This document shows positions 2,641 to 18,962 of a stretch of 64,000 bases of DNA, one piece after another. The stretch lies in the NCBI GenBank assembly GCA_964604885.1, contig CAZSAB010000003.1, forward strand, positions 28,335 through 92,334, read 5' to 3'. The notes beneath the pieces were generated by a model. That model made no database searches and was not told where the DNA came from. It worked only from the letters and a program-made list of their open reading frames with translations. How positions within the stretch are numbered: position 1 is the stretch's first letter; each line of letters opens with the position of its first letter. Source of the DNA: an uncultured archaeon. Lineage in GTDB: Archaea > Nanohalarchaeota > Nanosalinia > Nanosalinales > Nanosalinaceae. The translations under genes were made by a program, and so were the position numbers.

Positions 2641-3501
2641 TTATTTCACTTTCTCCACTTCCAACCAGGGTACTTCAACCAGTGCAGGAATATGTGTTTC
2701 AACGTGGTGTTCCCATACGCCCTGTTCGCCAAATGCCTCTCCATGATCTGACGTTATGACTACTTTGCCGTCAAGTTCTTCGGCTAATTCACTGGCATTC
2801 TCCAGAACCAGTCTCATATTTTCCCTATAATACTTCATGAGCGTCTCTCGTGTATCTCCACGTATCACCTCAAAAATGGATGCAGTATCAAGGCTGGACA
2901 TGAATCCTAGCTTCATGAAAGCCTCTGTCTCTTCTAGTTTCCCGATAAGATTAGGAATTCTCTCAGATATACTGCCAGGCATTCTTCCTCCATCTTCACC
3001 TTCTTCTTTCAACTTACTGAAGCTTTTCTGCAGTTGCTTGTTTATCCTGCTCTTGCCTCTTCCAACAAAAGGTGCATGGGGTTGCATGTAGTGAATAACG
3101 GTTCTCCTATCTCCCAGATGGTTAATTCTATCTTTAAATTCTCTGTTGACGTCTTCAGGGTGAACAGTTCCGCTTTCCTCATCCCAGACCTCATCCCAGA
3201 GATCCACTACATGTGCAATATGTTTTGAAGGAGTTTTATCGTAGTCCACAGCCCCAATTTCGTTTAGCGGGAGACCTATTCCATTGATGAAAGGATTTGC
3301 TGAGAACCAGTTGATGTTCTGCCGTCCTTCAAGAACTTTGTCAGCCCATTCAGGAGTTGCTGAGGCCTTGCTTTTTCTCTTTTCCAAGTTACCGGAAAAA
3401 TATTCTCCGTACATTTCCTCAAATACGTCGTAACGTGCTGAATCCAGGATAATTGCGTAGTCCCAGTCCTCTTCCAGAAAGTTTTGATCCTTCACACACA
3501 A
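2641..3501 (-). CDS. Alkaline phosphatase/sulfatase-like superfamily protein (haloarchaeal type)
   Basis: DWDYAIILDSARYD, HYMQPHAPF and ITSDHGEAFGE motifs; probable start GTG at 3495. Confidence 0.75.
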   Translation of the reverse strand: MCVKDQNFLEEDWDYAIILDSARYDVFEEMYGEYFSGNLEKRKSKASATPEWADKVLEGRQNINWFSANPFINGIGLPLNEIGAVDYDKTPSKHIAHVVDLWDEVWDEESGTVHPEDVNREFKDRINHLGDRRTVIHYMQPHAPFVGRGKSRINKQLQKSFSKLKEEGEDGGRMPGSISERIPNLIGKLEETEAFMKLGFMSSLDTASIFEVIRGDTRETLMKYYRENMRLVLENASELAEELDGKVVITSDHGEAFGEQGVWEHHVETHIPALVEVPWLEVEKVK

Positions 3502-3545
3502 AATTTAATCAGTGGATTTTAACTTTTTACCGAAGAAACTGAAAT

Positions 3546-4211
3546 ATGGAAGAAATTCAGCCGGGGATCTACAGAGGGAATGGAAATCTCTATACACATA
3601 ATTCAAATCCTGGAAAGAAAGTCTATGGAGAAGGATTATATGATAGAGAGGAAAAGGAGTTCAGGGCCTGGCACGGCAACAGGTCGAAGGCAGCGGCCGC
3701 AGTGTTGAATGGAATTGATATAGAGCTAGATCAGGATGATGAAGTTCTGTATCTTGGAGCGGCGTCAGGAACAACTGTGTCTCACTTCTCAGATATCTTG
3801 GAAGAAGGCTTTATTTACGCCGTCGAATACTCAGATACTGTAATTAGGGATCTAGTGGAACTGGCTGAAAAAAGGGACAACATAGCTCCGATACTGGGAG
3901 ATGCAAGAAATCCGGACGAATACAGTGATCTAGTGGAAGGAAGAGTGGATATTATTTTTCAGGATATATCGCAAAGTGACCAACCTGAGATTTTCCTTAA
4001 AAACAGTGAAAAGTTCCTTAAAAAAGGCGGTATAGGGCTTTTGGCAGTTAAGGCTCACTCTATATCAACTTCTAGGAACGAGGAAGAAGTATTTCAAGAA
4101 GTAAAAGAAAAATTAGTGGGAAAATTTGATTTAATCAGTGAGGCAAAGCTTGAGCCTTACGAGAAAAACCACTTATTTCTTAAACTTCGATTCAAAGGTG
4201 GAGAAAATTGA
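3546..4211 (+). CDS. flpA: Fibrillarin-like rRNA/tRNA 2'-O-methyltransferase
   Basis: RSKAAAA, VLYLGAASGTTVSHFSD, NIAPILGDA and QDISQ motifs. Confidence 0.96.
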   Translation: MEEIQPGIYRGNGNLYTHNSNPGKKVYGEGLYDREEKEFRAWHGNRSKAAAAVLNGIDIELDQDDEVLYLGAASGTTVSHFSDILEEGFIYAVEYSDTVIRDLVELAEKRDNIAPILGDARNPDEYSDLVEGRVDIIFQDISQSDQPEIFLKNSEKFLKKGGIGLLAVKAHSISTSRNEEEVFQEVKEKLVGKFDLISEAKLEPYEKNHLFLKLRFKGGEN

Positions 4212-4606
4212 AGACGGTGATGGCTCAAGGAACTTTTGATATTATACATCCTGGTCATATCCACTATCTAGAAAAATCTAGGGAGAAAGGTGATAAACTC
4301 TTTGTTGTCATAGCAAGGGATTCAAGAATTGAAGATCGGAAAAACCTTTTTTTCAGTGAAGAAGAAAGGAGAAAAATTGTCGGGTCGCTTGAAGCAGTTG
4401 ATAAAGCCCTTTTGGGAAGCAAGGACGACATTTACTCCACTGTAGAAAAAATTAATCCTGATCTAATTACCTTAGGAAGTGATCAGGATCACTCCGAGTC
4501 CGAGGTAAAGGAGATGGCTGAAAAAGCTACGGGGCATAGGGTTGAGGTAGTTAGATTATCGGAACTTGGAGATTACTCATCTTCAAAAATTAGAGAACGC
4601 CTTTGA
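4208..4606 (+). CDS. ribL: FAD synthase (cytidylyltransferase superfamily)
   Basis: GTFDIIHPGHIHYL (HxGH), VIARD, ITLGSDQ and SSSKI motifs. Confidence 0.8.
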   Translation: MKTVMAQGTFDIIHPGHIHYLEKSREKGDKLFVVIARDSRIEDRKNLFFSEEERRKIVGSLEAVDKALLGSKDDIYSTVEKINPDLITLGSDQDHSESEVKEMAEKATGHRVEVVRLSELGDYSSSKIRERL

Positions 4607-4649
4607 TATCACCCCTACAAGTTATAATCTGCCTCAAGAAATTTTTGAT

Positions 4650-5693
4650 GTGGGCTTTTGCAAAGGGCAAAGCGGTATAGAGTACTTAACAACGTATGGC
4701 TGGATGATTGTGGCTGCTAGTGTGGTCGGAGGAACAATGTACACTCAGATTGATACGGATACTTGTGGGCCGCGGGCTGATGGTTTTTCTGCTCCTTTTC
4801 CGACGGTTGAAGATGTTTACCGGTACGAAAACGGTACTGTTGTCTTGGATGTTAGGAATCCTGAGGACAGTTCAGTAGAAATTAACGAGATAGTAATCAG
4901 GGAAGATGGGGAAGAAGTCGGGATACTTGACTTAAACAAGCAAGTGAATGGTCAGGCCTCAGAGTTGATAAACACTAATAGGTTTAAGACCTCTGAAAGC
5001 TGCGAGACCAGAGACATTCAGATAAACTACGACTCAGGCACGCTCTCAGGGCTAACCGCTAACGGAACATTAACTGGAAGACTAGACCTTGTAAAGCTAA
5101 AAGCATTGTTTACTGTAAATCAAACCTTCCCGGCAACTAACGAACAGATCAAGTTCAACGCATCTGATACAGACGGAAAAAACAGTATAGAACACTACAA
5201 CTGGAGCTTTGGAGACGGAAACACAGCAAAAGGAAAAACAGTTACACACAACTACAGCCAACCAGGAATATACAATGCGGAGTTAGAATTAGAGGATACA
5301 GAAGGAATAATTGACTCAGAAACAGCTCAAATATTTGTAGGAGGGCTGCTGGAAAGAGGAGGGGACAACATATCATCCTTAAAAGTAGCTGACAGCCTGG
5401 TGATCAAGTGTGCAGGAGGAAAATGCGTCAAAGTTTCTGAAGACGATGAAACAGGAGTAAACGCAGAAGGGGATATAATGGAGGGCACCCTGTTCACAAA
5501 CAGGCTGGTGGTCAGAACCACAGACTACTGCGTAACAGACTACGCCTCCGAAGGCTCGGACGAAGGCTGCGACAGGTCTTTAGGGAATGCAGGAGGCAAA
5601 GTCTCCGAAGAGAACAACACTATGTACGGAAGCCTAAAAGTACCTACCGTAAAACCACTTCAAAATATGCTCTGCCTAGGCAGCAACTGCTGA
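4650..5693 (+). CDS. Class III signal peptide (type IV pilin-like) protein with PKD domain and Cys-containing C-terminus
   Basis: Likely GTG start at 4650 gives MGFCKG/QSGIEYL (E at +5) then a hydrophobic helix. PKD motif FNASD...YNWSFGDG...VTHNYSQPGIY. ORF track starts at 4566. Confidence 0.75.
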   Translation: MGFCKGQSGIEYLTTYGWMIVAASVVGGTMYTQIDTDTCGPRADGFSAPFPTVEDVYRYENGTVVLDVRNPEDSSVEINEIVIREDGEEVGILDLNKQVNGQASELINTNRFKTSESCETRDIQINYDSGTLSGLTANGTLTGRLDLVKLKALFTVNQTFPATNEQIKFNASDTDGKNSIEHYNWSFGDGNTAKGKTVTHNYSQPGIYNAELELEDTEGIIDSETAQIFVGGLLERGGDNISSLKVADSLVIKCAGGKCVKVSEDDETGVNAEGDIMEGTLFTNRLVVRTTDYCVTDYASEGSDEGCDRSLGNAGGKVSEENNTMYGSLKVPTVKPLQNMLCLGSNC

Positions 5694-5732
5694 TAAAAAC
5701 CAATTAAAACCACCAAAACAAAATACAAGTCA

Positions 5733-8303
5733 ATGAATTATAAAATTCCTATACACCTCTCCATAATACTTCTAACTGTAAGTTTATCCGCCGCCACACT
5801 CGACTTTAGAACCCAGAACCCTATCAACTTTCATTCCTCACTAGACATCAACAGCAACAATATAGACAATGTCAGCGAAATACTTAGAGACGGAACCACA
5901 AACCTGAAACTAAACAGTAACGGCAATGTAGAGGTGTCACAGGGAGACTTAAAGGTTTCAAGCGGTGAAATACTTATTCCATCCCAGTTCAAGATCTCCG
6001 ACACAGGAGTAATAGAATCAAGGAGATCAGATGATAACCTTTACCTAGACCTGGGAAGCGGAGGAACAGGCCAACTCAACGTGAGAGACTCAGGACGAAC
6101 AAATCTGTTGGTGGTGAAAGAGGATGGAGAAGTACTGGTAAAAGAAGGAACCCTAAACCTGACGAACAGCCGGATAACCGACGTCAACACACCACAAGAA
6201 GGAACCGATGCCGCAAACTTTGCATGGGTGGACAGCAACTTCGTAAACAGAAGCGGGGATACTATGAACGGTAACATAGACATGAATGGAAACAATATAA
6301 CAGACATAAGATACCTCAACATGACCTCAGGCCTGGAAATAGATGGAGACATAGACACCAACAGCGGAGCAATAGATACAGATGGAGGAAACGTGATACT
6401 CAGAGGAGGCTACATCTCCAACGACGGCGACAACGAAGGCCTACAAGTAAACGATTCAGGAGATGTGAATGTGCCAAGCGGAGATATAGGTGTTTCTGGT
6501 ACGACTGATGGTGTTGATATAGATAATCCTGGGAATGCTATTGTAATAAACAGTCAGAGATATGCGATTGCTGATGATTCAATTGGAGATGGAGAAATAG
6601 GTGAGGATGCAGTAGGAGACACTGAGTTGAACAATTCGCAGTCATTTGACGTAAGCGGGTTGACTACAACTGATTTGACAGCTACCGGTACGGTAAGTTT
6701 TCCTAACAATGCAATAAGCAATGCAGAGTTGGCCAACAGCAGTTTAACTGTTGCAGGCAACAGTGTTTCTCTTGGAAGCAGCACGGCAGTATCGATTAAT
6801 GACTTATCGGATGTTGACAGTGTATCTGAAAACGCTGGACAGGTCTTGATATGGGATGATAACAACGACCAGTACTCTAACGCCAAGATTACCTCGGGAA
6901 GCGGCCTAGGATCAAGTTCAGGAGATGCATCATATACATTGGATGTAAATACAGGCAACGGTATAGAGATCAACACAGATGACGTCAGAGTAAACCCTGA
7001 ACAGTTTGCAGGAGATGGATTAAAAGAGACTAGTGCAACCTCAATGGGTGTTGAGCCGGACGATATTGCGGGGAGCTACCTAAGCGATGATGGTGGCGAT
7101 GACCTGCAGGTGAACACAGGTTCTTACATTTCGGGAGATGGCTCAGACAATATCCAGGTCAACATAGATAATGGTTTACAGGGAGACGGATCCGACAATA
7201 TAGAAGTGGCCTGGGGTGACGCCAACGATTTAGGAAACAGCGGTGGTTTAAGCGATAATGTTGTGAACGGCGACGAACTTTCCGATTCTTTTTGTTCTTC
7301 GAGCCAAGTCCTTGTATTTGACGGGACGAATTGGGTTTGTGCAGATAGAGACAGTGTAGGGACGGACAGCCAGGATCTTTCCTCAGAAAATGCCTCAAAC
7401 CCTGACAGTATACCAAACGTAGTTCACAAGATTAAAATCACAAACGGCAGTAACACCGCAGTCAAAGACTACTACGAAAAAGATACTACCGCAGATGAAT
7501 ACAATAACTGGGATTGGTATATGGATGGAAGCAGCAAGAAAAGCGTGACAAGCGGCGGTACTGCAGGAATTGATTCGGGCAACGCCATCAGCCTAAGCTA
7601 CAATAATGGCCGTGATATTCAGGTAGATGTCTCAGCCTCTGACCTGGCTGGCAGCGAGTTAACAGACAACAGCGGAGCCCTGGACGTCAATCTGAAGACG
7701 TTAAGCAGTGATTCGAGTATCAGCGGCAGCGATTACGATGGTTCTAATAACAGGGATTGGAGTGTGGCTTGGGAAGATGCCAATGATTTAGGAAGTAAAG
7801 GCGGCCTCAGCGACAATGTAGTGAACGGCGACGAACTCTCCGACTCTATGTGTGGAACCGATAAGGTGCTAGTTTATGATGGGAATAACTGGGTGTGTGA
7901 ATCAAAATCCGCGGTTGGCACAGACGACCAAGGCCTCCCATCAGTCCTTGGAAACAATAATCAGGCAAACATGAGCATAGACATGAATGAGAAAAGGATC
8001 AAAAACGTTCCAAAACCTCAGGCCCAGGGAGACGCAGTAAACAAGTCTTACGTAGACAAGAAGGCCGGAGAAGCTGACAATAATGCCACACAGAACTTGG
8101 AGCAGGTGCTTGAAGAAGGAAACGGTGCAGGAGACGACAACATAAACATGGACAGCCAGAACATAAAAGACGCAGGAAAAATCGGGGTAGGAACAGCAAG
8201 TCCTTCGGAAGATTTGGATGTAGATGGCAGCGCAAGCGTCAGCTCCAGCGGAACCACAATGAAAGTCGAAAACAATGGCGACGTGGTGATAACCCTTGGA
8301 TAA
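5733..8303 (+). CDS. Secreted acidic repeat protein with phage tail-fibre / trimeric adhesin-like motifs (856 aa)
   Basis: Sec signal peptide. Motifs RITDVNTPQEGTDAANFAWVD, FVNRSGDTMNGNIDMNGN, RIKNVPKPQAQGDAVNKSYVD and IGVGTASPSEDLDVDG. No C-terminal membrane anchor. Confidence 0.7.
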   Translation: MNYKIPIHLSIILLTVSLSAATLDFRTQNPINFHSSLDINSNNIDNVSEILRDGTTNLKLNSNGNVEVSQGDLKVSSGEILIPSQFKISDTGVIESRRSDDNLYLDLGSGGTGQLNVRDSGRTNLLVVKEDGEVLVKEGTLNLTNSRITDVNTPQEGTDAANFAWVDSNFVNRSGDTMNGNIDMNGNNITDIRYLNMTSGLEIDGDIDTNSGAIDTDGGNVILRGGYISNDGDNEGLQVNDSGDVNVPSGDIGVSGTTDGVDIDNPGNAIVINSQRYAIADDSIGDGEIGEDAVGDTELNNSQSFDVSGLTTTDLTATGTVSFPNNAISNAELANSSLTVAGNSVSLGSSTAVSINDLSDVDSVSENAGQVLIWDDNNDQYSNAKITSGSGLGSSSGDASYTLDVNTGNGIEINTDDVRVNPEQFAGDGLKETSATSMGVEPDDIAGSYLSDDGGDDLQVNTGSYISGDGSDNIQVNIDNGLQGDGSDNIEVAWGDANDLGNSGGLSDNVVNGDELSDSFCSSSQVLVFDGTNWVCADRDSVGTDSQDLSSENASNPDSIPNVVHKIKITNGSNTAVKDYYEKDTTADEYNNWDWYMDGSSKKSVTSGGTAGIDSGNAISLSYNNGRDIQVDVSASDLAGSELTDNSGALDVNLKTLSSDSSISGSDYDGSNNRDWSVAWEDANDLGSKGGLSDNVVNGDELSDSMCGTDKVLVYDGNNWVCESKSAVGTDDQGLPSVLGNNNQANMSIDMNEKRIKNVPKPQAQGDAVNKSYVDKKAGEADNNATQNLEQVLEEGNGAGDDNINMDSQNIKDAGKIGVGTASPSEDLDVDGSASVSSSGTTMKVENNGDVVITLG

Positions 8304-9305
8304 AAAAATAATTGCATTAACATTGGCTCTACTATTATTTATAGGATCTGCCTCAGCCAAGGACTTTATCATAGAAGACAGCTCAAACAACAACCTCCTG
8401 GAAGTAAACGGAACGAGCCAAAATGTAGAAGTACCGAACGGAAACCTCAACCTCGGAAACAACAACCTCAATAATATAGGAGGCCTACAAAGCTGTGCGG
8501 ACAGCGATTATGTAGGCGGAGATGGAACATGTTACAGCGACAGCACAGCAGACGAATATGATGACTGGGACTGGTTCATGGATGGTTCCGAGCAGAAAAG
8601 TGTATCTAGCGGCCAGGACGCAGGAATTGATTCGGGCAATGCCATCAGCCTAAGCTACAACGATGCCAGAGACATACAAGTAGCCGTCTCAGCCTCTGGT
8701 TTGGATGGTAGTTATCTTTCTAGTGGTGGTGGTGAGTTGGATGTTTCTGATAGTTGGATTGATGAAGGATCTTCTGATGTTGATGGTTCTACTATTGAGT
8801 ATAGTTCTGGTACTTTGAATGTTGTTGATTCTGGTATCACTTCGACTCAGTTGGATGAGTCTGATACTTATAGTTTGGGTTGGAGTAATTTGGGTATTAG
8901 TCAGTCGGATGTTGGTCCTGGTGATATTCCGTTCAGTGGTAATACTGGTTGGAGTGACTTGGATATTTCTCAGTCTGATATTGATTACAGTGATATTCCT
9001 CTTTCCAATCATGCTGGCGACCAGATTACTTGGGACTCCAACAATAACGAGTACGATACTAATCTTAACTCTTTAAGCAGTGATTCGAGTATCAGCGGCA
9101 GCGATTACGACGGTTCTTCTAGTCGGACTTGGAGTGTGGCCTGGGGAGATGCCGATGATTTAGGAAGTAGTGGAGGATTGAATGATAATGTTGTGAACGG
9201 CGACGAACTCTCGGACTCATTTTGCCTAACTGATGAAGTCATGGTGTATGATGGGAATAACTGGGTGTGCGAATCGAAAACTGGTGTTGGAACAGACGAT
9301 CAAAA
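7200..9305 (+). repeat. Module C (SSDSSISGSDYDGS...WSVAW.DA.DLG..GGL.DNVVNGDELSDS.C...YDGNNWVCESK..VGTDDQ)
   Basis: Full copies at about 7701-7930 and 9073-9305, both starting ttaagcagtgattcgagtatcagcggcagcgattacga; partial copy at about 7200-7370. Confidence 0.88.
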
Positions 9306-9939
9306 TCTTCAGGAAGTACTTAATGAAGGGGATGATGCTGGTGGCAATCCAATGACAAATATTGGGTCAGGAAGCATCGATATCGATGGAAGCAGTGCTG
9401 GAAACATCAACTTGAATTCTGAGGAACTCAGGAATGGAGATATAGTTCATTCTAATGATATTGTGGTTGGTTCATATTCAACAGGCAGCAGCAGTGTAGA
9501 TGGGGGAGACATCTGGGTTAAAAACGATGTTGAGATCCAAGGAGATATCTTGGGTGCTGGAGCTGACGTAGCTGAAAAGATCAAAAGCGAATCAAGTCTG
9601 GATGCGGGAACAGTTGTGAAGATATCAGGCAACATGAGTGTAGACCGAACAAGTGAATCGAAAGACACAGACGTAGCTGGCGTGGTTTCAACAGATCCAG
9701 CAATGGTGATGGCAAAGGAAAGGGATGGGGTGCCTGTGGCAATGACCGGTACTGCACCAGTAAAAGTGACGATGGAAAATGGCAATATCAAACCCGGTGA
9801 CAAGTTAACCTCATCTTCGACCCCTGGAAAGGCAATGAAATGCAATGAGATCGACACATGTACCGGCGCTCTCATAGGTAAAGCACTTGAACCAGCAGAA
9901 AAACCCGGCGAAATTAAAATGTTGATATCGATGGGCTAA
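8296..9939 (+). CDS. Secreted tail-fibre-like protein with C-terminal Peptidase_G2-like intramolecular chaperone/autocleavage domain (547 aa)
   Basis: Signal peptide; TTG start overlaps the previous stop. C-terminus GADVAE...VAGVVSTDP...PVAMTGTAPVKV...IKPGDKLTSSSTPGKAMK...IGKALE. Confidence 0.75.
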   Translation: MDKKIIALTLALLLFIGSASAKDFIIEDSSNNNLLEVNGTSQNVEVPNGNLNLGNNNLNNIGGLQSCADSDYVGGDGTCYSDSTADEYDDWDWFMDGSEQKSVSSGQDAGIDSGNAISLSYNDARDIQVAVSASGLDGSYLSSGGGELDVSDSWIDEGSSDVDGSTIEYSSGTLNVVDSGITSTQLDESDTYSLGWSNLGISQSDVGPGDIPFSGNTGWSDLDISQSDIDYSDIPLSNHAGDQITWDSNNNEYDTNLNSLSSDSSISGSDYDGSSSRTWSVAWGDADDLGSSGGLNDNVVNGDELSDSFCLTDEVMVYDGNNWVCESKTGVGTDDQNLQEVLNEGDDAGGNPMTNIGSGSIDIDGSSAGNINLNSEELRNGDIVHSNDIVVGSYSTGSSSVDGGDIWVKNDVEIQGDILGAGADVAEKIKSESSLDAGTVVKISGNMSVDRTSESKDTDVAGVVSTDPAMVMAKERDGVPVAMTGTAPVKVTMENGNIKPGDKLTSSSTPGKAMKCNEIDTCTGALIGKALEPAEKPGEIKMLISMG

Positions 9940-9942
9940 AAT

Positions 9943-11157
9943 TTGATAATGATTAAGAATCTCCTGAAATTGCTTATCTTTGTAAATATCGGCTTTTTAG
10001 CAGCTTCTTTCCTAATAAATGTTCCTGAGGCGGAATGGAAAACCGAAGTAATTGCAGAGGATACCTACGGAAAATTCGTTAGTATAGACAGTTACGAAAA
10101 CAAGTTAGGAGTTGCATACGTCGACTCGATTAATTCAGGTCTTAGTTTTTTAGAGCATGATTATTCTAATTCACCTCTCGACTTGATTAAAATTGAAAAT
10201 AAGACTTGGAAGAAACAGAAGATAGATGGAAGAAAGGGGAGAGGTATGTACCCGTCACTGCGGTGGAAGAAAGAATCTCCAGCGATTGCTTACCAGGATG
10301 GAAGACTGGGTCAGGAAAACCTTTACTTTGCTCAAAGAAACCAGGCTGAGTGGCAGATCGAAGAAGTTGACAATGTTTCTAATGGAGGAGTTTCAGTAGG
10401 AATGTATAACTCCATGGCCTATCTTGAAAACCCTGTAATCTTTTACCATTCTCCTTCACAAGGGTTGAAGAAAGCAGAAAGGATAAATAACTGGACTACT
10501 GAAAGATTGGAATCCGATATGGGGTGGTTTACCTCCAGTTCTGAGTGTGAAGGTAAAATACTTGCTGCTTACTCTGGCCGGACGTCAGATAGTTTGATGA
10601 TCGGAGAGTATCCGAACTGGAGTTCCGAAAACACTTCGATCAACGTAAGATCAGATATTTCAATGGATACAAGGAACTGCAAACCACACTTCATTTATCT
10701 TGAAGATGACTCTGGCAATATCACCTATATGTCTCCCAGCGGTCAAAAGAAAATACTAGATAATGGGTTTTTTTCAAGAATGTCAATAGAAGCAGAAGAA
10801 AACATTCATTTAATATATCATAAGGAGGGAACAGGCCTAAAATACTTTAAAAAGGATGCTGAATGGAGCAATAGAACAGTTGCCGAAGGCTCAGATCTAG
10901 GAAGATATAACGATATTGAAGTTGATTCAAGTGGAAATATACATATCGCTTACCTTAACCAAACAACTCTCCATCACGCCATGTATAATTCAGGCCAAAC
11001 TGAGTTCAAAAAACAGTCCTTACATTATTTACGGATTATCAGCGGCTTATCTGCGTTAACACCGGCCTTCATACTGTTAATTATAATTTACGGGCGAGGA
11101 GACAATCCCGCCTCAAAAATTTCATCTCTAAAACAAAAAATTAAACCCGGAAATTAA
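9943..11157 (+). CDS. Membrane-anchored extracellular beta-propeller-like (BNR-type repeat) protein
   Basis: N-terminal hydrophobic segment; repeats such as PAIAYQD, W.IEEVD, IHLIYH and YNDIEVDSSGNIHIAY; C-terminal TM helix with basic tail. Confidence 0.55.
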   Translation: MIMIKNLLKLLIFVNIGFLAASFLINVPEAEWKTEVIAEDTYGKFVSIDSYENKLGVAYVDSINSGLSFLEHDYSNSPLDLIKIENKTWKKQKIDGRKGRGMYPSLRWKKESPAIAYQDGRLGQENLYFAQRNQAEWQIEEVDNVSNGGVSVGMYNSMAYLENPVIFYHSPSQGLKKAERINNWTTERLESDMGWFTSSSECEGKILAAYSGRTSDSLMIGEYPNWSSENTSINVRSDISMDTRNCKPHFIYLEDDSGNITYMSPSGQKKILDNGFFSRMSIEAEENIHLIYHKEGTGLKYFKKDAEWSNRTVAEGSDLGRYNDIEVDSSGNIHIAYLNQTTLHHAMYNSGQTEFKKQSLHYLRIISGLSALTPAFILLIIIYGRGDNPASKISSLKQKIKPGN

Positions 11158-11216
11158 GCGGAAAATAAATTATAACTCGAAAACCTTTAATCCCGCAGAA
11201 TTTCAACCTAAAAAAC

Positions 11217-11948
11217 ATGGAATCTGACCAAGAAATCAAGGAATTAATAAGGAGTAAATATAGGCAAGGAATCTCTGAGAAAAGACTGAAAGAAATAGTT
11301 GCAAAGGAAGGCTTTGACTCGGGTATAGTCGACGAAGTACTAGGTGAAAAACACAAAGAACCAGAAAATCAAGCAAGTAAAGATCAGAGTACCCGGTCTA
11401 ATGAGGTCCACAGTAAATCAACCGAGAAGACAGATAAAATGAATAATTCCTCAAAGGGAACGAAAAAGCGAAAAAGCATTTCAGCTGAAGACTCGGGTAG
11501 ACAAGTTGAGAAAATAGCCTCTAAAAAAAAGAAAAACACACATAAAAAGAGAAAACTGCTTCTTCCATCAGCATTAATTATACTAACAATCCTTGTAGGA
11601 GCAGCAATTCTTCCAATAACAGGAATAGTCAGTTTAGATAATTCAACAGATAATAATCAAGCCAGTCCCTCAAAGATTGAAGCAAACTCCAATTTTTCAG
11701 AGGAAGCTGAACTAAAAACTATAGTGCTTAAAGATGGTCTGGCCGACCCGGCTAGAGCCTCGGCCTCTTCCGGAGAAGAAATTCTTTTCGTAAACAGACA
11801 AACTGAAAAACTTGAAATAGAGTTTGACATCGGGAAAAAGATGATTTTAAATCCTGGTGAGAGAAAATCAAATTCATTTTCAACCATTACATACTACACT
11901 GCTGAAGGTAACACAACTGAGATAAAAGGATCAATATACGTTGAATAA
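11217..11948 (+). CDS. Single-pass membrane protein with small C-terminal beta domain (cupredoxin-like pattern, no Cu ligands)
   Basis: Charged N-terminus, TM helix LLLPSALIILTILVGAAILPI, C-terminal EILFVNRQTEKLEIEF...ILNPGE. Confidence 0.5.
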   Translation: MESDQEIKELIRSKYRQGISEKRLKEIVAKEGFDSGIVDEVLGEKHKEPENQASKDQSTRSNEVHSKSTEKTDKMNNSSKGTKKRKSISAEDSGRQVEKIASKKKKNTHKKRKLLLPSALIILTILVGAAILPITGIVSLDNSTDNNQASPSKIEANSNFSEEAELKTIVLKDGLADPARASASSGEEILFVNRQTEKLEIEFDIGKKMILNPGERKSNSFSTITYYTAEGNTTEIKGSIYVE

Positions 11949-12025
11949 GTCCGCCTATACCAATCCCTAACCTGTCTTCCAAAATAGTTTAAATGAGATG
12001 AAATGTAATATATATTTTAGAGGGT

Positions 12026-15000
12026 TTGATTTCCTTGAGTAGGCGATTTACTAAGATACTTGTGCCCTGTATACTCACAGTTTTCCTAGTTACGACAGCT
12101 TCATCCACGGATCTGCAAAACATTCTTTCTATAACCTCAGATGGATCAAAACCTATATACGTAAACGATTCTCTGAACTTGAACAGCAACGACTTGGATA
12201 ATCCAAATCTGGTTGATGGCGTAAACTTGGATCTTCCTGGAAACGCATTGAATCTTTCATCCAATCAGTACAATGTAGAACCTGACTCCATCAGTACCTC
12301 AGAACTTAACACAGGAGACGTTGACACACGCTACCTCAACAAAAACGGTGACAAGATGAATGGCAGCCTCAACATGGGAAACAACGACATAAACAATATT
12401 GGAGGCCTGCAAAGCTGCGGAAGCGATCAATATGTTGGAGGAGACGGTTCATGTAAAAACGACGACGGCGGCACCGACGACCAAAACCTCGGCTACAACA
12501 ATAAAAATTCTCCGACCGGCAACTACGTAAAACACGAGGTAACGATTACCGGCGGCTCCAACACAGATATCAGAGACTACTACGAAAGCGATACAACCGC
12601 TGATGAATACGGTAATTGGGACTGGTTTATGGATGGCACCGAGCAAAAAAGCGTGAGCAGTGGCCAGGATGCAGGTATTGATTCTGGTAATGCGATCAGC
12701 TTAAGCTACAATAATGGCCGTGATATTCAGGTTGGTGTTTCTGCTTCTGGTTTGGATGGTAGTTATCTTTCTAGTAGTGGCGGTGAGTTAGATGTTGATG
12801 CAGGAAGTGTTCTCGGCTCAGGAAATGATTTAGATAACAGTGGTAATGTAGGTGACTCGGATAAGGTGGACGGTGAGCAACTTACGGATATACTTAACGA
12901 TGAGAATGACGATGTAATTGGCGCAGACTGGAACACCCTGACAGAACCAGGAATACACGGGGTAAGCGGTTCATCTTGGAGTGGAAGCAATCAGCCAACC
13001 TCTGCCTATACCTATGGCCAATTGATTGTTACAGAAGGGGACAATGGGATTATGCAGATGTATGTTTCGCACCACTCAGCGAGAGATGGTTCGGTTTGGA
13101 TAAGGACTGGTTGGAAAGATGGTAGCTGGGACAATTGGCATGCAATGCCTACGAGAGAATGGGTGAACAACAATGATGCTAATAACCACGATGATCAGGA
13201 TATTTCTGCGAGTGTAAGCGGTCAAAGTATGGATATTTCTATAACTGAAGGTAGCGATGGTTCGGCGACAATTGATGACAACCACAATTTGGGAGATGTA
13301 CTTAACGATGGTGACTCAGCCAATCAAGACATCAATTTGGGTACGAATAACGGTATTCTGACGAATGGAGGCAATGATGGCAATCACGGTATAGCTCAAG
13401 GAGATGGCTCAAGCGGTTATACTGGAATTGATGGCCCGGATATTTTCGGATATGCAGGTGTTAATATTTACGGAACCAATTCAGGCCAGAAAATCGCTCA
13501 CTTTGATGATGGAGGTAATGTTGATATTCCAAACGGGAATCTTGACGCAAATGGATTCACCGAAGGAGGCAGCAACACTTTAAGTAATAACATCGGTGGT
13601 AGTGCTGATCAGCTAGATGGTAATGATGCTTCTTTTTTTGAGGAGGAGAGTCATGGTGGTGAGCATTCTGGTGACTATCTTTCTAACAGTGGTGACACTT
13701 TGAATGTAAATGCAGGAAGTGTTCTCGGTTCCGGTAATGATTTGGATTCGAGTGGTGATATAGTATCGAATGCGGTCGGCAACGACGAGATTAAAAATGG
13801 AAACACTTTCAATATGGATTCGATTCATTCCTTGACAGATACGAATGCTCTGGTGTTTGATGGAGGCGACCACAGGATTACAAATCATGATGGAAATGGA
13901 AATTTCAATATCAAGGCAGGGGTTGACGATAACAATAATATCGTGTCAGGGGATGGTGGTTCCCATTTACAGATGTCGGACGGCGGGGCTATATCTCTTA
14001 TGACGGATTCTTCCAGTAGTAGCAGTTTTTCAAGAGATGCCGAGCTGGAGATTAATAATGATGTTGAGGTAGAGAAAGGGCCGTTAAACATGCGGAACAA
14101 CGGCATCAATAATATAGGAGGCCTTCAGGGTTGTGGCGGGAACCAGTTTGTAGACGGTGATGGTAACTGTGAGACGGATGATTCAGGTAGTGACGATCAG
14201 AATCTGGGATACAACAATAAGAATTCTCCCACCAGCAATTACAAAACTCATGAAATTACTATTACTGGCGGCTCGAACACTGATATAAGAGACTACTATG
14301 ATCCGGATACCACTGCAGATGAATACGGAAGCTGGGACTTCTACACTGACAATACTAATAGAAAGAGTGTTTCCAGCGGACAGGATATAGGTATAGACTC
14401 AGGCAACGCCATAAACCTGAACTGGGATGGATCCCGAGATGTCTCAGTAGCTGTTTCTGCTTCTGGTTTGGATGGTAGTTATCTTTCTAGTGGGGGCGGT
14501 GAGTTGGATGTTGCCGCTGGTAGTGTTCTGGGTTCAGGTAATGATTTGGATTCGAGTGGTGATGTTTCTGGTTTGAGTGATGTTGATACTGATGATTTGT
14601 CTGAGGGCGGCAGTAATCTTTACTTTACTGATGAGCGTAGTCAGGATGCTGTTGGTACTATTATGAGTGGTAGTGGTGCTGCTTCTGTTACGTATAGTGA
14701 TGGGAGTGATTCGATTACTGTTGATGCTGATAATGCTCAGACTCTGTGCGGCGGCAAAGCTGTTTTGACTGGGGGTAATGGATGCCAGAGTCGATATACG
14801 TCTTGGGACTGGTACATGGATGGAGCTCAAGCAAAAGCTATTGATGGGGACGATAACGCAGGAATCGATTCGGGCAATGCCATCAGCCTAAGCTTTAACG
14901 ATAACAGAGATATTCAGGTTGCTGTTTCTGCTTCTGGTTTGGATGGTAGTTATCTTTCTAGTGGGGGCGGTGAGTTGGATGTTGCTGCTGGTAGTGTTCT

Positions 15001-17560
15001 CGGTTCCGGTAATGATTTGGATTCGAGTGGTGATGTTTCTGGTTTGACTGATGTTACTACCAGTGACTTGAGCGAGGGCAGTAATGAGTATCATACTGAT
15101 GGAAGAGTTCATGGAGCGGTGGAATCAGGTAATGTTGATAATGTCCAGTTTAGTAACATTGAGAGCGTAAGTAATGGTGAAATAGGCCGGGATAATAGTA
15201 TAGGGTTCCTTGCGGAGTGGGGAGGGAACGGCAATGCGGTTTTATGGGATGCATACAATGTCCAAACAAACGGAGGTATAAGCGTAACCGGAGGGACAGG
15301 TAATGAAGACAATCCAAAGATAAATCTGGCTGCTAACGATCTTGACGCCAGCGGCAACATTAATGATTGGAGCGGGGCTGACGACTTGGATGGTAGTGGT
15401 GATGTGAATAGTGGTGCTGCTGGCAGTTATTTGAGTGAGAGCGGAGGTTCTTTGGATGTTAATGTTGGTAGTGTTTTGGGGTCGGGTAATGATTTGGATA
15501 GTAGTGGTAACGTAAACCATGGAATTGGGGCTAGTCTGGGCGATGGGAGGGATGCTGGTTCGGACTATGTGACTTTTGCCAATAGCGGTGATTTTTACAT
15601 TGGAGGATCCAGTACTCCTGATGCATCAACCTCTGGGATACATGTTGAGGCAAACAGCAATCCTTCGAGCGGAAACCCGATTTTTACGGTTGAAAGCAGC
15701 GGAGGTTCAGAAAGGCTTAGAGTTGAACACGGTGGAGACCTCTACACATCAAACAATCTGGATGTAGATGGTGGAAACATTTATGACAGCGGAAGCAATT
15801 TTTTCGGAGGCTGTAGCTCAGGCGATTATGTTGAAAGTATAAATTCAGATGGTTCGGTTAATTGTGCAAACGACGACACAGGAGGAACCAGTTTGACAGG
15901 TGGAGACGGCATCGACCCTTCCAGCATCAGCAACGGCAATACCTTGAGTGCAGCCTGGGGCGACGCCAATGATCTGGACAGCAGCGGCAATGTTAACCCA
16001 TCTTCTTTAGATGGAATAGGTCTAGATTCTAACTCCACACATCTCGAATTTGGAGGATTTACAACTATAGTGTCAGGTGGTGCAGTAGCCAACTTTGTCA
16101 CTGATACCGCAGCCATAAATTATTGGGGTTCTGATAGCATGGAGGCTTCAACTATTTCCAATTATAATCTGCATGGAAAAACATATAGTGCGGCGACGCC
16201 GAGTGTAAGATGGAATGCTGCTGATGATTTGGATGCTAGCGGAAACCTGGATGATTTCGGGGATGCGAATGATCTAGATAGTAATGGAGATTTGAATAAC
16301 GTAGGATGGAGCGATTTTGATAACGCGGCTCAGTCGGATGTTGATTACAGTGATATTCCTCTTTCCAATCATGCTGGTGATCAGATTACTTGGGACTCCA
16401 ATAATAACGAGTACGATACTAATCTTAACGATTTAGTTGCTGGGAGTCATCTTAGTGGCAGTAATTATGATGGTTCTGGGTCTGTTACTTTTGATGTTAG
16501 TGATGACTGGATTGATGAAGGATCTGATGATGTAGGCGAGGGTCTGAGCTGGGTTTCACCTTCTAATGAGATTAAAGTTTCCTGGCAAGATGCTGAAGGT
16601 CTAAATCAGAACGGCTATATCAATACAGGAAACGGCCTCTCAAACAATCAAGGCGGTTCAGTTGATGTCGACTGGACGGACGCCAATGATTTGGACAGCA
16701 ACGGCAATGTTAACTGGGGCAATGCTGATGATCTGGATTCGAGTGGTGATTTGAATGCTTATAACTTTGCAAATCAAGGTTCGGCTCCGCAAAATGAGAT
16801 AATAACCGGTGACGCCAATGGAGATGGATGGATCAATAAAGAAGATATACAAATCATACAAAATGAAGCAGTTGGATTAACTCCAGACTGCGGCTCAAAT
16901 AGAATTGCAAGGTGTGATATTAACGGTGATGGAAGTGTGCAGACAAATGATATTCAATTACTTGCCAGATTCCTAAACGGCGATGAGGATCATTCTAGTA
17001 CTCAAATCCCAGTTGAAGGCCATATGATAAGGGATAGTAACAGTGAGGTCTCTGTTGATTTAGGTTCCAAACCCCAACAGATAGGAAATACAGGTAACAG
17101 CGGTGTTATTCAAACAGATTCAACGATGACCTATAATGATAAAGGAGACAGTGTGGAACTAGGTGTTAGTTCTGTGGATACTGGGCAGATAGACTCTCAA
17201 GCTGTAACTTCTAGTGAAACTACTGTCTTCAGTAGAAATACAGCTGACGAAGATGTATTTCACAGGAAAACTGCTGACTTAAATTCCGGGAATACTGATG
17301 ATGTATCCGACACCATTACCGCGCCGGAGGATCCTGGGAGTGGTAATGAAGCGGTGGTAAGAGTAACGTGGTCAATTGGAAGATATTGCAAATGGTTTTT
17401 GGGTACCTTCGGCAATGTGTATACAGTGGAGTCAGCAGGTGGTACTTGTGGTACCTCACAAGGCTCAAAAGATACTAACCTTTACCGTAGTGGCACTTCC
17501 TTTAAATTGGAAAATAATTTTGGCACCGATAATCGCTACATGCTTACAGCCTATAATTAA
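12026..17560 (+). CDS. Giant secreted acidic repeat protein (1844 aa) with tail-fibre motifs, pyocin-knob-like domain and dockerin-like domain
   Basis: Signal peptide; YLNKNGDKMNGSLNMG motif; knob-like DWNTLTEPGIHGV...GQLIV...QMYV...VWIRTG...WDNWH (~12926-13149); paired EF-hand-like GDANGDGWINKED / CDINGDGSVQTND (~16808-16980); many W.DA.DLD.SG repeats. Confidence 0.8.
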   Translation: MISLSRRFTKILVPCILTVFLVTTASSTDLQNILSITSDGSKPIYVNDSLNLNSNDLDNPNLVDGVNLDLPGNALNLSSNQYNVEPDSISTSELNTGDVDTRYLNKNGDKMNGSLNMGNNDINNIGGLQSCGSDQYVGGDGSCKNDDGGTDDQNLGYNNKNSPTGNYVKHEVTITGGSNTDIRDYYESDTTADEYGNWDWFMDGTEQKSVSSGQDAGIDSGNAISLSYNNGRDIQVGVSASGLDGSYLSSSGGELDVDAGSVLGSGNDLDNSGNVGDSDKVDGEQLTDILNDENDDVIGADWNTLTEPGIHGVSGSSWSGSNQPTSAYTYGQLIVTEGDNGIMQMYVSHHSARDGSVWIRTGWKDGSWDNWHAMPTREWVNNNDANNHDDQDISASVSGQSMDISITEGSDGSATIDDNHNLGDVLNDGDSANQDINLGTNNGILTNGGNDGNHGIAQGDGSSGYTGIDGPDIFGYAGVNIYGTNSGQKIAHFDDGGNVDIPNGNLDANGFTEGGSNTLSNNIGGSADQLDGNDASFFEEESHGGEHSGDYLSNSGDTLNVNAGSVLGSGNDLDSSGDIVSNAVGNDEIKNGNTFNMDSIHSLTDTNALVFDGGDHRITNHDGNGNFNIKAGVDDNNNIVSGDGGSHLQMSDGGAISLMTDSSSSSSFSRDAELEINNDVEVEKGPLNMRNNGINNIGGLQGCGGNQFVDGDGNCETDDSGSDDQNLGYNNKNSPTSNYKTHEITITGGSNTDIRDYYDPDTTADEYGSWDFYTDNTNRKSVSSGQDIGIDSGNAINLNWDGSRDVSVAVSASGLDGSYLSSGGGELDVAAGSVLGSGNDLDSSGDVSGLSDVDTDDLSEGGSNLYFTDERSQDAVGTIMSGSGAASVTYSDGSDSITVDADNAQTLCGGKAVLTGGNGCQSRYTSWDWYMDGAQAKAIDGDDNAGIDSGNAISLSFNDNRDIQVAVSASGLDGSYLSSGGGELDVAAGSVLGSGNDLDSSGDVSGLTDVTTSDLSEGSNEYHTDGRVHGAVESGNVDNVQFSNIESVSNGEIGRDNSIGFLAEWGGNGNAVLWDAYNVQTNGGISVTGGTGNEDNPKINLAANDLDASGNINDWSGADDLDGSGDVNSGAAGSYLSESGGSLDVNVGSVLGSGNDLDSSGNVNHGIGASLGDGRDAGSDYVTFANSGDFYIGGSSTPDASTSGIHVEANSNPSSGNPIFTVESSGGSERLRVEHGGDLYTSNNLDVDGGNIYDSGSNFFGGCSSGDYVESINSDGSVNCANDDTGGTSLTGGDGIDPSSISNGNTLSAAWGDANDLDSSGNVNPSSLDGIGLDSNSTHLEFGGFTTIVSGGAVANFVTDTAAINYWGSDSMEASTISNYNLHGKTYSAATPSVRWNAADDLDASGNLDDFGDANDLDSNGDLNNVGWSDFDNAAQSDVDYSDIPLSNHAGDQITWDSNNNEYDTNLNDLVAGSHLSGSNYDGSGSVTFDVSDDWIDEGSDDVGEGLSWVSPSNEIKVSWQDAEGLNQNGYINTGNGLSNNQGGSVDVDWTDANDLDSNGNVNWGNADDLDSSGDLNAYNFANQGSAPQNEIITGDANGDGWINKEDIQIIQNEAVGLTPDCGSNRIARCDINGDGSVQTNDIQLLARFLNGDEDHSSTQIPVEGHMIRDSNSEVSVDLGSKPQQIGNTGNSGVIQTDSTMTYNDKGDSVELGVSSVDTGQIDSQAVTSSETTVFSRNTADEDVFHRKTADLNSGNTDDVSDTITAPEDPGSGNEAVVRVTWSIGRYCKWFLGTFGNVYTVESAGGTCGTSQGSKDTNLYRSGTSFKLENNFGTDNRYMLTAYN

Positions 17561-17604
17561 TCAAATACTTAGGGAAAGTTCCTCAGGCGATTTAGTAATT
17601 TCTT

Positions 17605-18036
17605 TTATTTTCTTCTAATTATCATGCGACCAAAATTTTTAAATTCCTGTACCTCTGTACCCCTAGCTAGGAAGGCTATTTTCCTCTTATCCATTTTGTG
17701 TTCAATTAGTTTATATTGCGCGGATTCATTTGGTTCTATTGTCTCAGATTTCCTTTCTGTAATATTAAAGCTGATATTAACCGGGGTTTAAATCCGATTC
17801 TTTATACTTATTTCTTGGTTGTAAGTGATGTTTGCCTTCAAAACTGATCCTTCCCCATCTATATACATTTCCACTTCCGAGTCATTGATTTTTGGTTTTT
17901 CAGACTTTATTTCGTTAGCATTCTCAGGTGGCGTATTGATCTTTTCGAAAGCAAATCCCGATACAGCTACAATTAGTATTATCAATATTCCGAATATCGC
18001 TATTTCCTTCTTTCCACTCTTAATATTTCTTTCCAT
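17605..18036 (-). pseudogene. Paralog of 11217-11948 and 19063-19527 with one in-frame TAA at 17788-17790
   Basis: Reading through the TAA gives EISIKNRI*TPVNISFNITERKSETIEPNES, which aligns with the paralog motif; the frame stays open 60 more codons to a TAA at 17605-17607. Confidence 0.65.
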
Positions 18037-18156
18037 TATACTAACATGGTTTTTGGTTTGGTATAAAGTTTTCCAGAATGGAATCCTGGAAGGATTGTTG
18101 AGATTTGAGTCAGGATTTCAGCTTTATCATTAGCTTTTTATTACTTCTGTAATAAA

Positions 18157-18669
18157 TTGTATTACATGGTTGGTGTGGTGTTTGATGCCTCGGCCCTAAT
18201 ACTGATGGCAAAAATAGGGTTGCTGAAAGAGCTCTCAAAGGAAATCGATATACATACCACAGAAACCGTCTGCGAAGAAACAACCAGAGCAGAAACCTAT
18301 GACGCAGAAGTAATCCAGCAAAGATCAGAGAACAACCATTTTACCAGAGAAAAAGTTCCTGAAGAAAACATAGAAAAGATAATAGACAGATTCAACCTTG
18401 ACAAAGGAGAAGCATCAACAATAGCACTTCAAAGACAGATAAACGCAGATATAATCGCAACAGATGACAAACAAGCTATCAATGCCTGCAAAATACTGGA
18501 AATAAAATTTACAACAAGCTTAAAACTGCTTGGAAGAGCATATGAAAAAGAACTAATAAGCCAAGAAAAAGCCATGACTAAACTGAAAGAGCTTGACAAG
18601 CATGGCCGGTACAATGATAATCAGATAAAATCCACAGAACAAAACATTAGAGGTGAGAACCAAAAGTGA
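18157..18669 (+). CDS. PIN-domain protein (DUF3368-like), putative toxin
   Basis: VFDASALI, LDKGEASTIAL and IATDDKQA PIN acidic motifs. Confidence 0.85.
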   Translation: MYYMVGVVFDASALILMAKIGLLKELSKEIDIHTTETVCEETTRAETYDAEVIQQRSENNHFTREKVPEENIEKIIDRFNLDKGEASTIALQRQINADIIATDDKQAINACKILEIKFTTSLKLLGRAYEKELISQEKAMTKLKELDKHGRYNDNQIKSTEQNIRGENQK

Positions 18670-18962
18670 ACGATGTTGTAAGCTTCAGACTTTCCGAAAA
18701 AGAAAAACAGATTATAGAGGACATAGCTAGTGAAGAAGACAAGGACAAATCAGAAGTAGCAAGAGAACTTATAGATTACGGGGAAACCTTCAGAGCAGTA
18801 AAAAGATTCAAAGAGGGAAAAATATCAGTGGGGAAAATGGCTTCAGAACTTGACATAACTATTACCGAAGCCATGAGCCTACTAACCCGGCTAGGAATAG
18901 ACTCAGGAATAACACAAGAAGACCAGGTGGAAGCCAAAGAAAACTTGGAAGAAGTATGGTAA
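18666..18962 (+). CDS. UPF0175-family putative antitoxin with N-terminal ribbon-helix-helix
   Basis: VVSFRL...KSEVARELI; FKEGKISVGKMASELDITI. Confidence 0.8.
   Translation: MNDVVSFRLSEKEKQIIEDIASEEDKDKSEVARELIDYGETFRAVKRFKEGKISVGKMASELDITITEAMSLLTRLGIDSGITQEDQVEAKENLEEVW

Follow-up and report, generated by a model that had tools for sequence, protein, structure and literature searches.

Background

Bacterial surface proteins are diversified by segmental gene conversion in systems such as Neisseria pilE/pilS, Mycoplasma genitalium MgPa/MgPar, Borrelia vlsE and Anaplasma msp2, and hypersaline microbes are known for hypervariable cell-surface 'metagenomic islands'. DPANN archaea, Nanohaloarchaeota among them, live as obligate ectosymbionts; to our knowledge, the way in which DPANN archaea recognise their hosts is largely unknown. 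In Thermococcales, a hypervariable module of genes with immunoglobulin (Ig) domains is reported (PMC8416519). The present study concerns three fibre-like genes, named gA, gB and gE, located in a 64,000-nucleotide stretch (contig C3:28335-92334, the window hereafter) of a 1.29-Mb, 96.8%-complete genome of Candidatus Nanohaloarchaea, which is the name carried by the closest database proteins in homology searches. No description of surface variation driven by gene conversion in DPANN archaea or nanohaloarchaea was found in the searchable literature.

The explanation that we hold to be highly probable is that gA, gB and gE encode three secreted, very acidic fibre-like proteins which draw on a common pool of cassettes and undergo ongoing homologous recombination, their fibre nature and surface function being in part deduced. 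Three modes of exchange emerged from our comparisons. Tracts of about 40-130 nucleotides (nt) are copied non-reciprocally between paralogous copies (gene conversion), crossovers in shared blocks insert, delete or reorder cassette arrays, and alleles recombine between co-occurring strains as well.

A common pool of cassettes

Genes gA (5733-8303, 856 amino acids, aa), gB (8296-9939, 547 aa) and gE (12026-17560, 1844 aa) all lie on the plus strand. Their ends are conserved, and their central parts consist of cassettes joined in frame (K, P, A, D, W, B, C), which belong to a pool common to the three genes. Cassette order differed from gene to gene, as a preliminary reading of the sequence alone (the sequence-only reading) had stated: C'-P-A-C in gA, K-A-W-B-C followed by a phage-like C-terminal domain (CTD) in gB, and K-P-A-D...K-P-A-D...A-D...B-X-W-dockerin in gE, which thus holds three A and two K copies along with D repeats. 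All repeats were direct and in frame, and self-comparison of positions 5000-18500 yielded no inverted-repeat pair.

The individual modules that this first reading had listed were all recovered. Module B is an 89-bp repeat with exactly 3 mismatches between gB (8981-9069) and gE (16341-16429), all of them synonymous third-position changes. Module A occurs in five copies, all in register: one in gA (7417-7654, in the form with a t2 tail), one in gB (8474-8754) and three in gE (A1, 12525-12850; A2, 14241-14640; A3, 14783-15101). The in-register part of the gB copy covers 8474-8711, and that of the gE copies 12525-12762, 14241-14478 and about 14783-15079. Module C has near-identical starts in gA and gB (a 38-nt exact match from 7701 and 9073), the full copies (7689-7931 and 9061-9303) being 81% identical; in gB, modules B and C have 9 nt in common (AATCTTAAC) where the one ends and the other begins. 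A short third copy, C' (gA, 7206-7386), has saturated synonymous divergence with respect to the other two. The Cys-pair module K is present in three copies, one in gB (8423-8541) and two in gE (12358-12463 and 14061-14170), with motif starts at nt 8470, 12392 and 14108.

A 40-nt block encoding VSASGLDGSYLSS (12736-12775, plus strand) is identical in the gE copies A1, A2 (14452) and A3 (14923). Gene gB also contains 32 nt of this block (8695), which is a candidate homology anchor. A further 43-nt unit, encoding WGDANDLDSSGNVN-like peptides, was observed in 10 copies over gA, gB and gE (window 7211-16756); it may serve both as structural repeat and as short recombination homology.

Exchange between paralogs and between strains

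The window was compared with two metagenome contigs of Joint Genome Institute (JGI) sample 3300042552, L032 (contig Ga0466667_0015133, 4477 nt) and L037 (6554 nt). Over window positions 6468-9068, L032 was 92% identical to the window without net insertion or deletion, and its divergence was concentrated in the cassettes: background synonymous divergence (dS) was 0.08-0.11 in gB and 0.14-0.36 in gA, with three patches far more diverged. The clearest case was found in module A of gB (8560-8720), where 32 of 161 sites distinguished L032 from the window. L032 carried the base of the window's gE copy A1 at 30 of these, so that its tract matched gE A1 at 156 of 161 positions (97%) versus 128 of 161 (80%) for the gB tract of the window. 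The three other paralogs, used as controls, matched L032 at only 10-15 of the 32 sites (binomial P ~2e-8, calculated by hand against the highest control rate). This conversion tract is about 130 nt long (approximately 8577-8700 in the strain-variable part of the gB copy), and at its left edge no more than about 11 nt are common to it and the donor-type copy. Likewise, in the part of the gA module C that spans 7725-7800, 10 of 13 differences between L032 and the window carried the base of the gB copy.

Rearrangement was also observed. L032 followed gB before module B and the post-B sequence of gE after it, the crossover lying inside the shared block (8981-9069 in gB coordinates). Cassettes resembling those of gE followed for about 1.7 kb, 78-90% identical and in an order unseen in the window, before the contig returned into module C of gB at 97% identity, with a frame open over 877 aa. 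L032 further contained a hybrid A copy, L_gB3, whose 5' part was 93% identical to gE A2 and whose 3' tail was of gA type. The B|C junction of the window and the t2|C junction of L032 had the 9-nt AATCTTAAC in common, which suggests a deletion or insertion at this short homology.

Contig L037, by contrast with L032, displayed the window architecture, with 98.3% identity over window positions 2649-9202; since both contigs came from the same sample, two gB architectures coexist in one brine sample. Module order was not constant between related strains. The sequence-only reading had also proposed to compare synonymous divergence with that of the flanks. Between L037 and the window, four flanking genes had a dS of 0-0.035, while dS reached 0.082 for gA and 0.118 for gB. 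The fibre genes thus had 5-7 times the synonymous divergence of the flanks, an excess that recombination would produce by bringing in diverged sequence. In module B, the three positions that distinguish gB from gE (9018, 9021 and 9042) were polymorphic among gB alleles, L037 carrying all three gE-type bases and L032 one of them. The central proposal of that reading, intergenic recombination between cassettes, is thus borne out by the gE A1-like tract of L032, the crossover in module B and paralog differences that segregate as polymorphisms.

Site patterns among the three sequences changed block by block. Over 7968-8567, L037 agreed with L032 and both differed from the window at 20 sites, none being contrary, while over 7068-7967 and 8568-8867 the window and L037 agreed and differed from L032; alleles therefore also recombine between strains. 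Two patches, 6468-6599 (dS 0.82 between window and L032) and 7188-7310 (dS 2.16), were observed to have no donor in the window genome, and they may derive from cassette copies found only in other strains.

One may ask whether diversity at the locus is driven mainly by divergent alleles, or even entire islands, that arrive from other strains or species through horizontal transfer and allelic recombination, with exchange between paralogs playing a minor role. The block-mosaic patterns, in which L037 groups with L032 or with the window according to the block, speak in its favour, as do the patchy occurrence of the island in genus and family, the elevated dS of the fibre genes and the two diverged patches lacking a donor in the window. 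Yet the clearest tracts match paralogs of the same locus at 97%, a level expected of orthologs, paralog differences segregate as polymorphisms, and the hybrid cassettes together with the module B crossover join gB-, gE- and gA-type neighbourhoods. Import as the main driver is therefore improbable in our view, although among the alternatives it survives best; import and paralog exchange probably both operate, and this alternative overlaps with the explanation that we prefer, recombination within a common cassette pool.

Integrity of the assemblies

Since all sequences compared here are short-read metagenome assemblies, shuffling might be an artefact, the window or contigs L032 and L037 being chimeric joins at repeats. 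In the window, exact repeats reached at most 40 nt between genes and at most 65 nt inside gE. Logan unitigs of run SRR8816319, found via gD, matched window positions 9081-12731 at 100% identity, and an identical gD product was encoded on Logan contig L035. These unitigs are assembled with k=31 and break at every exact repeat, which favours the artefact explanation. Break points were predicted from exact repeats of at least 31 nt and then sought on the unitigs: predicted partial products were recovered on SRR8816319 unitigs with exactly the predicted lengths (7709-8724, 15018-16370 and 16348-17877), and unitigs ended exactly at the gE copy of module B. The B|C junction of gB was found independently on JGI contig L037; an exact protein look-up of the 38-aa product spanning this junction gave no record. 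For the window, the possibility raised by the sequence-only reading that the repeats are assembly artefacts is thus unlikely, given the short exact repeats, the unitigs and the L037 junction.

For the strain contigs, an artefact would be suggested by their common origin in one sample, by the fact that both stop at window position 9202, and by their sharing every variant site over about 600 nt, where phasing is uncertain. Against it, exact intergenic repeats are at most 40 nt long, shorter than typical reads or final k-mers, and the 11 nt or so shared at the left edge of the L032 tract are too short for a de Bruijn chimera. The sequence of L032 after module B is only 78-90% identical to gE of the window and arranged in another order, with no jump into an orthologous gE, and the tail of L_gB3 and the gA copy of L032 itself have only 79% identity. 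In addition, diagnostic single-nucleotide differences separate L032 from L037 across module B, and L037 carries the B|C junction of the window type. Chimeric assembly accordingly ranks just below import in probability, and genuine recombination remains the preferred reading.

Cassette copies of graded age

Divergence between cassette copies was estimated by the Nei-Gojobori method, and codon identity at identical amino acids was set against the values predicted by codon usage in these genes. Most pairs had a dS that was saturated or nearly so (0.9 to infinity), while their non-synonymous divergence (dN) was 0.07-0.34, which marks them as duplicates that are old and under purifying selection. 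Much younger pairs stood beside them: module B (dS 0.22, dN 0), A2 versus A3 (dS 0.43) and the gB copy of A versus A3 (dS 0.64). Identical codons were in large excess for module B (25 of 28, 11.4 expected), module C (44 of 63, 22.7 expected) and A2/A3 (42 of 54, 16.6 expected), while the oldest pairs had no such excess (e.g. 17 observed and 16 expected for 7425 versus 14249). Gene gE copies A1 and A2, otherwise saturated, shared a run of 16 identical codons (12737-12787, P 0.0005) that holds the VSASGLDGSYLSS block; in the 30-nt windows beside this block they matched at only 13-24 of 30 positions. A run of 21 identical codons was likewise found between A2 and A3 (P 0.011). Cassette copies are thus of graded age, mostly old with young identical patches embedded. 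The recombination that had been called recent in the first reading is so for a minority of tracts (module B and the identical-codon runs), but not for most pairs, the dS of which is saturated.

Such data could be taken to mean that the cassettes are simply old domain duplications kept similar by purifying selection, without continuing intergenic exchange. Saturated dS together with low dN in most pairs, chance-level codon identity in some of them (17 versus 16 in the pair 7425/14249) and a weak PHI (pairwise homoplasy index) test agree with this. Runs of identical codons within a saturated background do not, nor do the 25 of 28 identical codons of module B. The strain comparison points in the same direction: differences between strains equalled the paralog base at 30 of 32 and 10 of 13 sites, paralog differences occurred as allelic polymorphisms, architectures differed between strains, and dS exceeded that of the flanks. 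Old duplication by itself is therefore very improbable, and continuing exchange among cassettes is retained as the explanation.

Recombination mechanism

In the mechanism that we favour, RadA, as general recombination machinery, would act on nucleotide blocks that are conserved; a RadA gene is present in the genome. The 40-nt VSASGLDGSYLSS block and the 89-nt module B are candidate anchors for exchange, and general recombination at such blocks would yield conversion tracts along with occasional crossovers that permute cassette arrays. Pfam scanning of the 96.8%-complete genome detected no reverse transcriptase (RVT_1), and Pfam, NCBIfam and PHROG scans found neither a recombinase domain in the genes of the locus nor a nuclease domain in g0, gC and gD, the three other genes of the island. 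A process operating without a dedicated recombinase, as the sequence-only reading had suggested, fits these results: neither reverse transcriptase, inverted repeats nor a recombinase of the locus was found, and RadA is present.

Two programmed systems were considered and rejected. A diversity-generating retroelement was discarded because there was no RVT_1 match in the genome and because variant sites copy paralog haplotypes rather than being adenine-targeted; a shufflon was discarded for want of inverted repeats in 5000-18500 and of a recombinase domain in the locus genes. Dedicated programmed diversification, whether by such a retroelement, a shufflon-type invertase or a cassette-specific nuclease, is scarcely credible, since the recurrence of sharply bounded identical blocks beside variable segments and the retroelements reported from some DPANN archaea, which both count for it, are set against a genome devoid of reverse transcriptase, a locus devoid of inverted repeats, the absence of recombinase or nuclease domains in g0, gC and gD, and variant sites that copy whole paralog haplotypes.

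Protein features and the fibre label

Each of the proteins gA, gB and gE starts with a signal-like hydrophobic stretch, and the residues D, S, G and N are extremely frequent in all three. Scans against Pfam, NCBIfam and PHROG recognised no family in gA, and in the three proteins together the only matches were a dockerin in gE and weak PHROG tail-fibre matches at the C-terminus of gB. A sequence search of gB against the Protein Data Bank (PDB) gave no match. The gE dockerin is of type I (PF00404; nt 16808-16978, aa 1595-1651) and scored 31.9 bits for a cut-off of 22.9 (E 1.6e-7). Despite this domain, no cohesin (PF00963) was detected in the organism's own genome, and the partner of the dockerin could be host-encoded.

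Relatives of the cassettes were very rare. Among 1.84 billion representative proteins, just 17 were related to the cassette region, and IMG/VR viral contigs contained no relative of the cassettes. Further homology searches, including those with gE, added almost no relatives, and metagenome scans with gE protein patterns and with an exact 35-nt module B pattern, in a collection that may lack near relatives, returned no matches. By these searches, the cassettes are new domain families.

The C-terminal domain of gB (9490-9936, aa ~398-547) was far better conserved, with 65-70% identity in relatives. Its AlphaFold2 (AF2) model, based on an alignment, reached a predicted local distance difference test (pLDDT) score of 88. 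Foldseek matched this model to phage cement or decoration proteins (including that of Haloferax tailed virus 1), to the phi29 gp8.5 base and to the C-terminus of phi29 gp12, with template modelling (TM) scores of 0.5-0.6 and E values of 1e-4 to 1e-2, the top matches being capsid cement/decoration proteins; against the phi29 gp12 structures 3suc and 3gqh, TMq was 0.60. Seven of 19 aligned homologues of the domain matched Pfam Peptidase_G2 (PF11962), the best with E 6e-7, while gB itself stayed below threshold. In a profile search of PDB, phi29 gp12 came first, with an E value of only 0.07, aligned at a DxAE motif, gB displaying GADVAE where gp12 has DFAE. Among phage records, tblastn matches of gB were limited to aa 423-545 and lay at the C-terminus of structural proteins of jumbo phages (E 3e-8). 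Taking sequence and fold searches together, the likeness to virion proteins was confined to the last ~125-150 aa of gB.

Judging from its model and its matches, the domain is probably a trimerisation or autochaperone domain. Like the autochaperone of phi29 gp12, the pre-neck appendage protein (PF11962), it occupies the extreme C-terminus and carries a D-x-A-E-like motif, GADVAE; unlike it, gB falls below the Pfam threshold and its top structural matches are cement/decoration proteins. The label 'fibre' for gA, gB and gE is in consequence reasonable but indirect. The proteins might form trimeric fibres, a suggestion that draws on the fold of the gB domain, close to that of phage cement proteins and of the phi29 gp12 C-terminus.

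Genomic context and distribution of the island

Six genes, in the order g0-gA-gB-gC-gD-gE and all on the plus strand, fill window positions 4566-17560 (~13 kb). Pfam scanning identified fibrillarin and cytidylyltransferase genes upstream of them and SufB and SufD genes downstream. The region is an accessory chromosomal island of a nanohaloarchaeon. That the fibre genes belong to a phage or provirus was considered and dropped, the flanks (fibrillarin, cytidylyltransferase and SufBD) being cellular. Neither Pfam nor PHROG scans detected capsid, portal, terminase or tail genes near the locus, and among ten open reading frames (ORFs) of the locus and its upstream region no PHROG structural match was obtained beyond the weak ones at the gB C-terminus. 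Within the organism's own genome, no cassettes were found outside this locus.

The three other genes of the island accompany the fibre-like ones. The first gene, g0 (4566-5693, plus strand), encodes a PKD-domain protein (Pfam PKD_4, E 3e-17) with a pilin-like N-terminus and has a weak homologue at the syntenic position in genome G003. Its N-terminus reads KGQSGIEY followed by a hydrophobic helix, resembling an archaeal class III (pilin-type) signal, and its C-terminus is Cys-rich. Gene gC (9943-11157, plus strand) specifies a conserved membrane protein of 404 aa that served as island marker; proteins 45-49% identical to it were found at the syntenic position in G003, G017 and G067. Pfam, NCBIfam and PHROG scans assigned gC to no known family. 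It displays hydrophobic segments at both termini and about seven repeated strand-like motifs, a sequence pattern that is possibly that of a beta-propeller. Gene gD (11217-11948, plus strand) encodes a 243-aa single-pass membrane protein with a weak syntenic homologue.

The order g0-gA-gB-gC-gD-gE was also encountered in G003, a member of the same genus, and in G017, from another genus. In both islands the conserved parts are gC, the C-terminal domain of gB, the C-terminus of gA and the N-terminus of gE, the centres being unrelated. Of 70 genomes of the class, only 7 carried the marker gC; all 7 belonged to one family, and the distribution of the marker was patchy inside the genus.

Some additional observations were made in G017 and around the end of the island. 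The G017 island (contig L030, 5010-19022) contains a Cys-pair cassette of its own, IGGLQNCG..NEFVNGNGNCE, in six copies across several fibre genes, with 66-85% nucleotide identity. On the same contig, a 90-nt direct repeat (1932-2021 versus 3634-3723, 91% identical) lies outside the fibre genes and appears to cover a gene start with its upstream sequence. In the window, a small ORF resembling ribbon-helix-helix/UPF0175 proteins (18666-18962; Pfam E 2.7e-5, below cut-off) is located just downstream of gE and, by its sequence, may be an antitoxin-like gene. A 170-aa ORF at 18157-18669 gave no record in an exact protein look-up. Since Logan unitigs of two runs end at 18400 and 18490, strains may be polymorphic in this part of the window.

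Weighing of the interpretation and its significance

Several points weigh against the interpretation of the locus as fibre-like genes engaged in ongoing cassette exchange. On the recombination side, the PHI test on the five A copies was marginal (P 0.03-0.06) and null on third positions alone. The strain evidence consists of two short contigs of one metagenome sample, with uncertain phasing across identical blocks; over 7968-8567, L032 and L037 share every site where either differs from the window. The comparison was made without outgroup, and the direction of each conversion event is accordingly not polarised. On the protein side, gB reaches no Pfam family, its Foldseek matches are moderate (TM 0.5-0.6), and the full-length AF2 model, computed without alignment, has a pLDDT of 37 and is unusable. 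As to function, an effect of cassette exchange on host range, as proposed in the sequence-only reading, is something that we purely infer.

Should the proteins act at the surface, diversification would alter what the symbiont binds or presents, for instance in the recognition of a haloarchaeal host or in escape from viruses. A more far-reaching reading can be put forward only tentatively and is, if anything, on the unlikely side: the locus would serve a DPANN symbiont to vary, cassette by cassette, the fibres with which it contacts its host, as an archaeal equivalent of the antigenic-variation loci of bacteria that has no silent cassettes. In it, three expressed genes of phage derivation would act as mutual donors, and ordinary RadA recombination at conserved anchor blocks would keep producing new fibre architectures, changing the haloarchaeal hosts that are bound or the viruses that adsorb.

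The locus provides concrete candidates for host recognition, since its secreted proteins are fibre-like and include a C-terminal domain of phage type (gB) and a dockerin (gE). Diversification by cassette exchange, among adjacent paralogs and between co-occurring strains, is visible here at nucleotide resolution. If the fibres do mediate host contact, the evolution of host specificity becomes testable by relating cassette architecture to host range.

Comparison with known systems

The sequence-only reading had likened the locus to phage tail-fibre mosaicism. Exchange of modules supports this likeness, but the genes are chromosomal and only the C-terminal domain of gB is phage-like. As in the mosaicism of phage tail fibres and receptor-binding proteins, modules are exchangeable, breakpoints lie in conserved nucleotide blocks and architecture varies between close relatives; the fold of the gB domain is, moreover, common to phage cement proteins, the phi29 gp8.5 base and the gp12 C-terminus. 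Here, however, the genes are cellular, their cassettes have no phage homologues, and exchange takes place largely among three paralogs of one locus instead of between phage genomes.

Segmental gene-conversion systems of the pilE/pilS, MgPa/MgPar, vlsE and msp2 kind resemble the locus in their short non-reciprocal tracts between paralogous cassettes and in the conserved blocks that flank variable segments. They also concern surface proteins of host-associated organisms with small genomes and make use of general homologous recombination. In contrast to an expression site supplied by silent donors, the present locus consists of three complete ORFs with signal peptides, which serve one another as donors, and no cassettes exist elsewhere in the genome. 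Selection by an adaptive immune system is out of the question for an archaeal symbiont of archaea.

With the metagenomic islands of hypersaline microbes and with the Thermococcales module, the locus shares the character of a patchy accessory island of secreted surface proteins with conserved neighbours and variable centres. It is distinguished from both by a defined pool of in-frame cassettes with donor tracts recognisable at the nucleotide level, as opposed to wholesale gene replacement.

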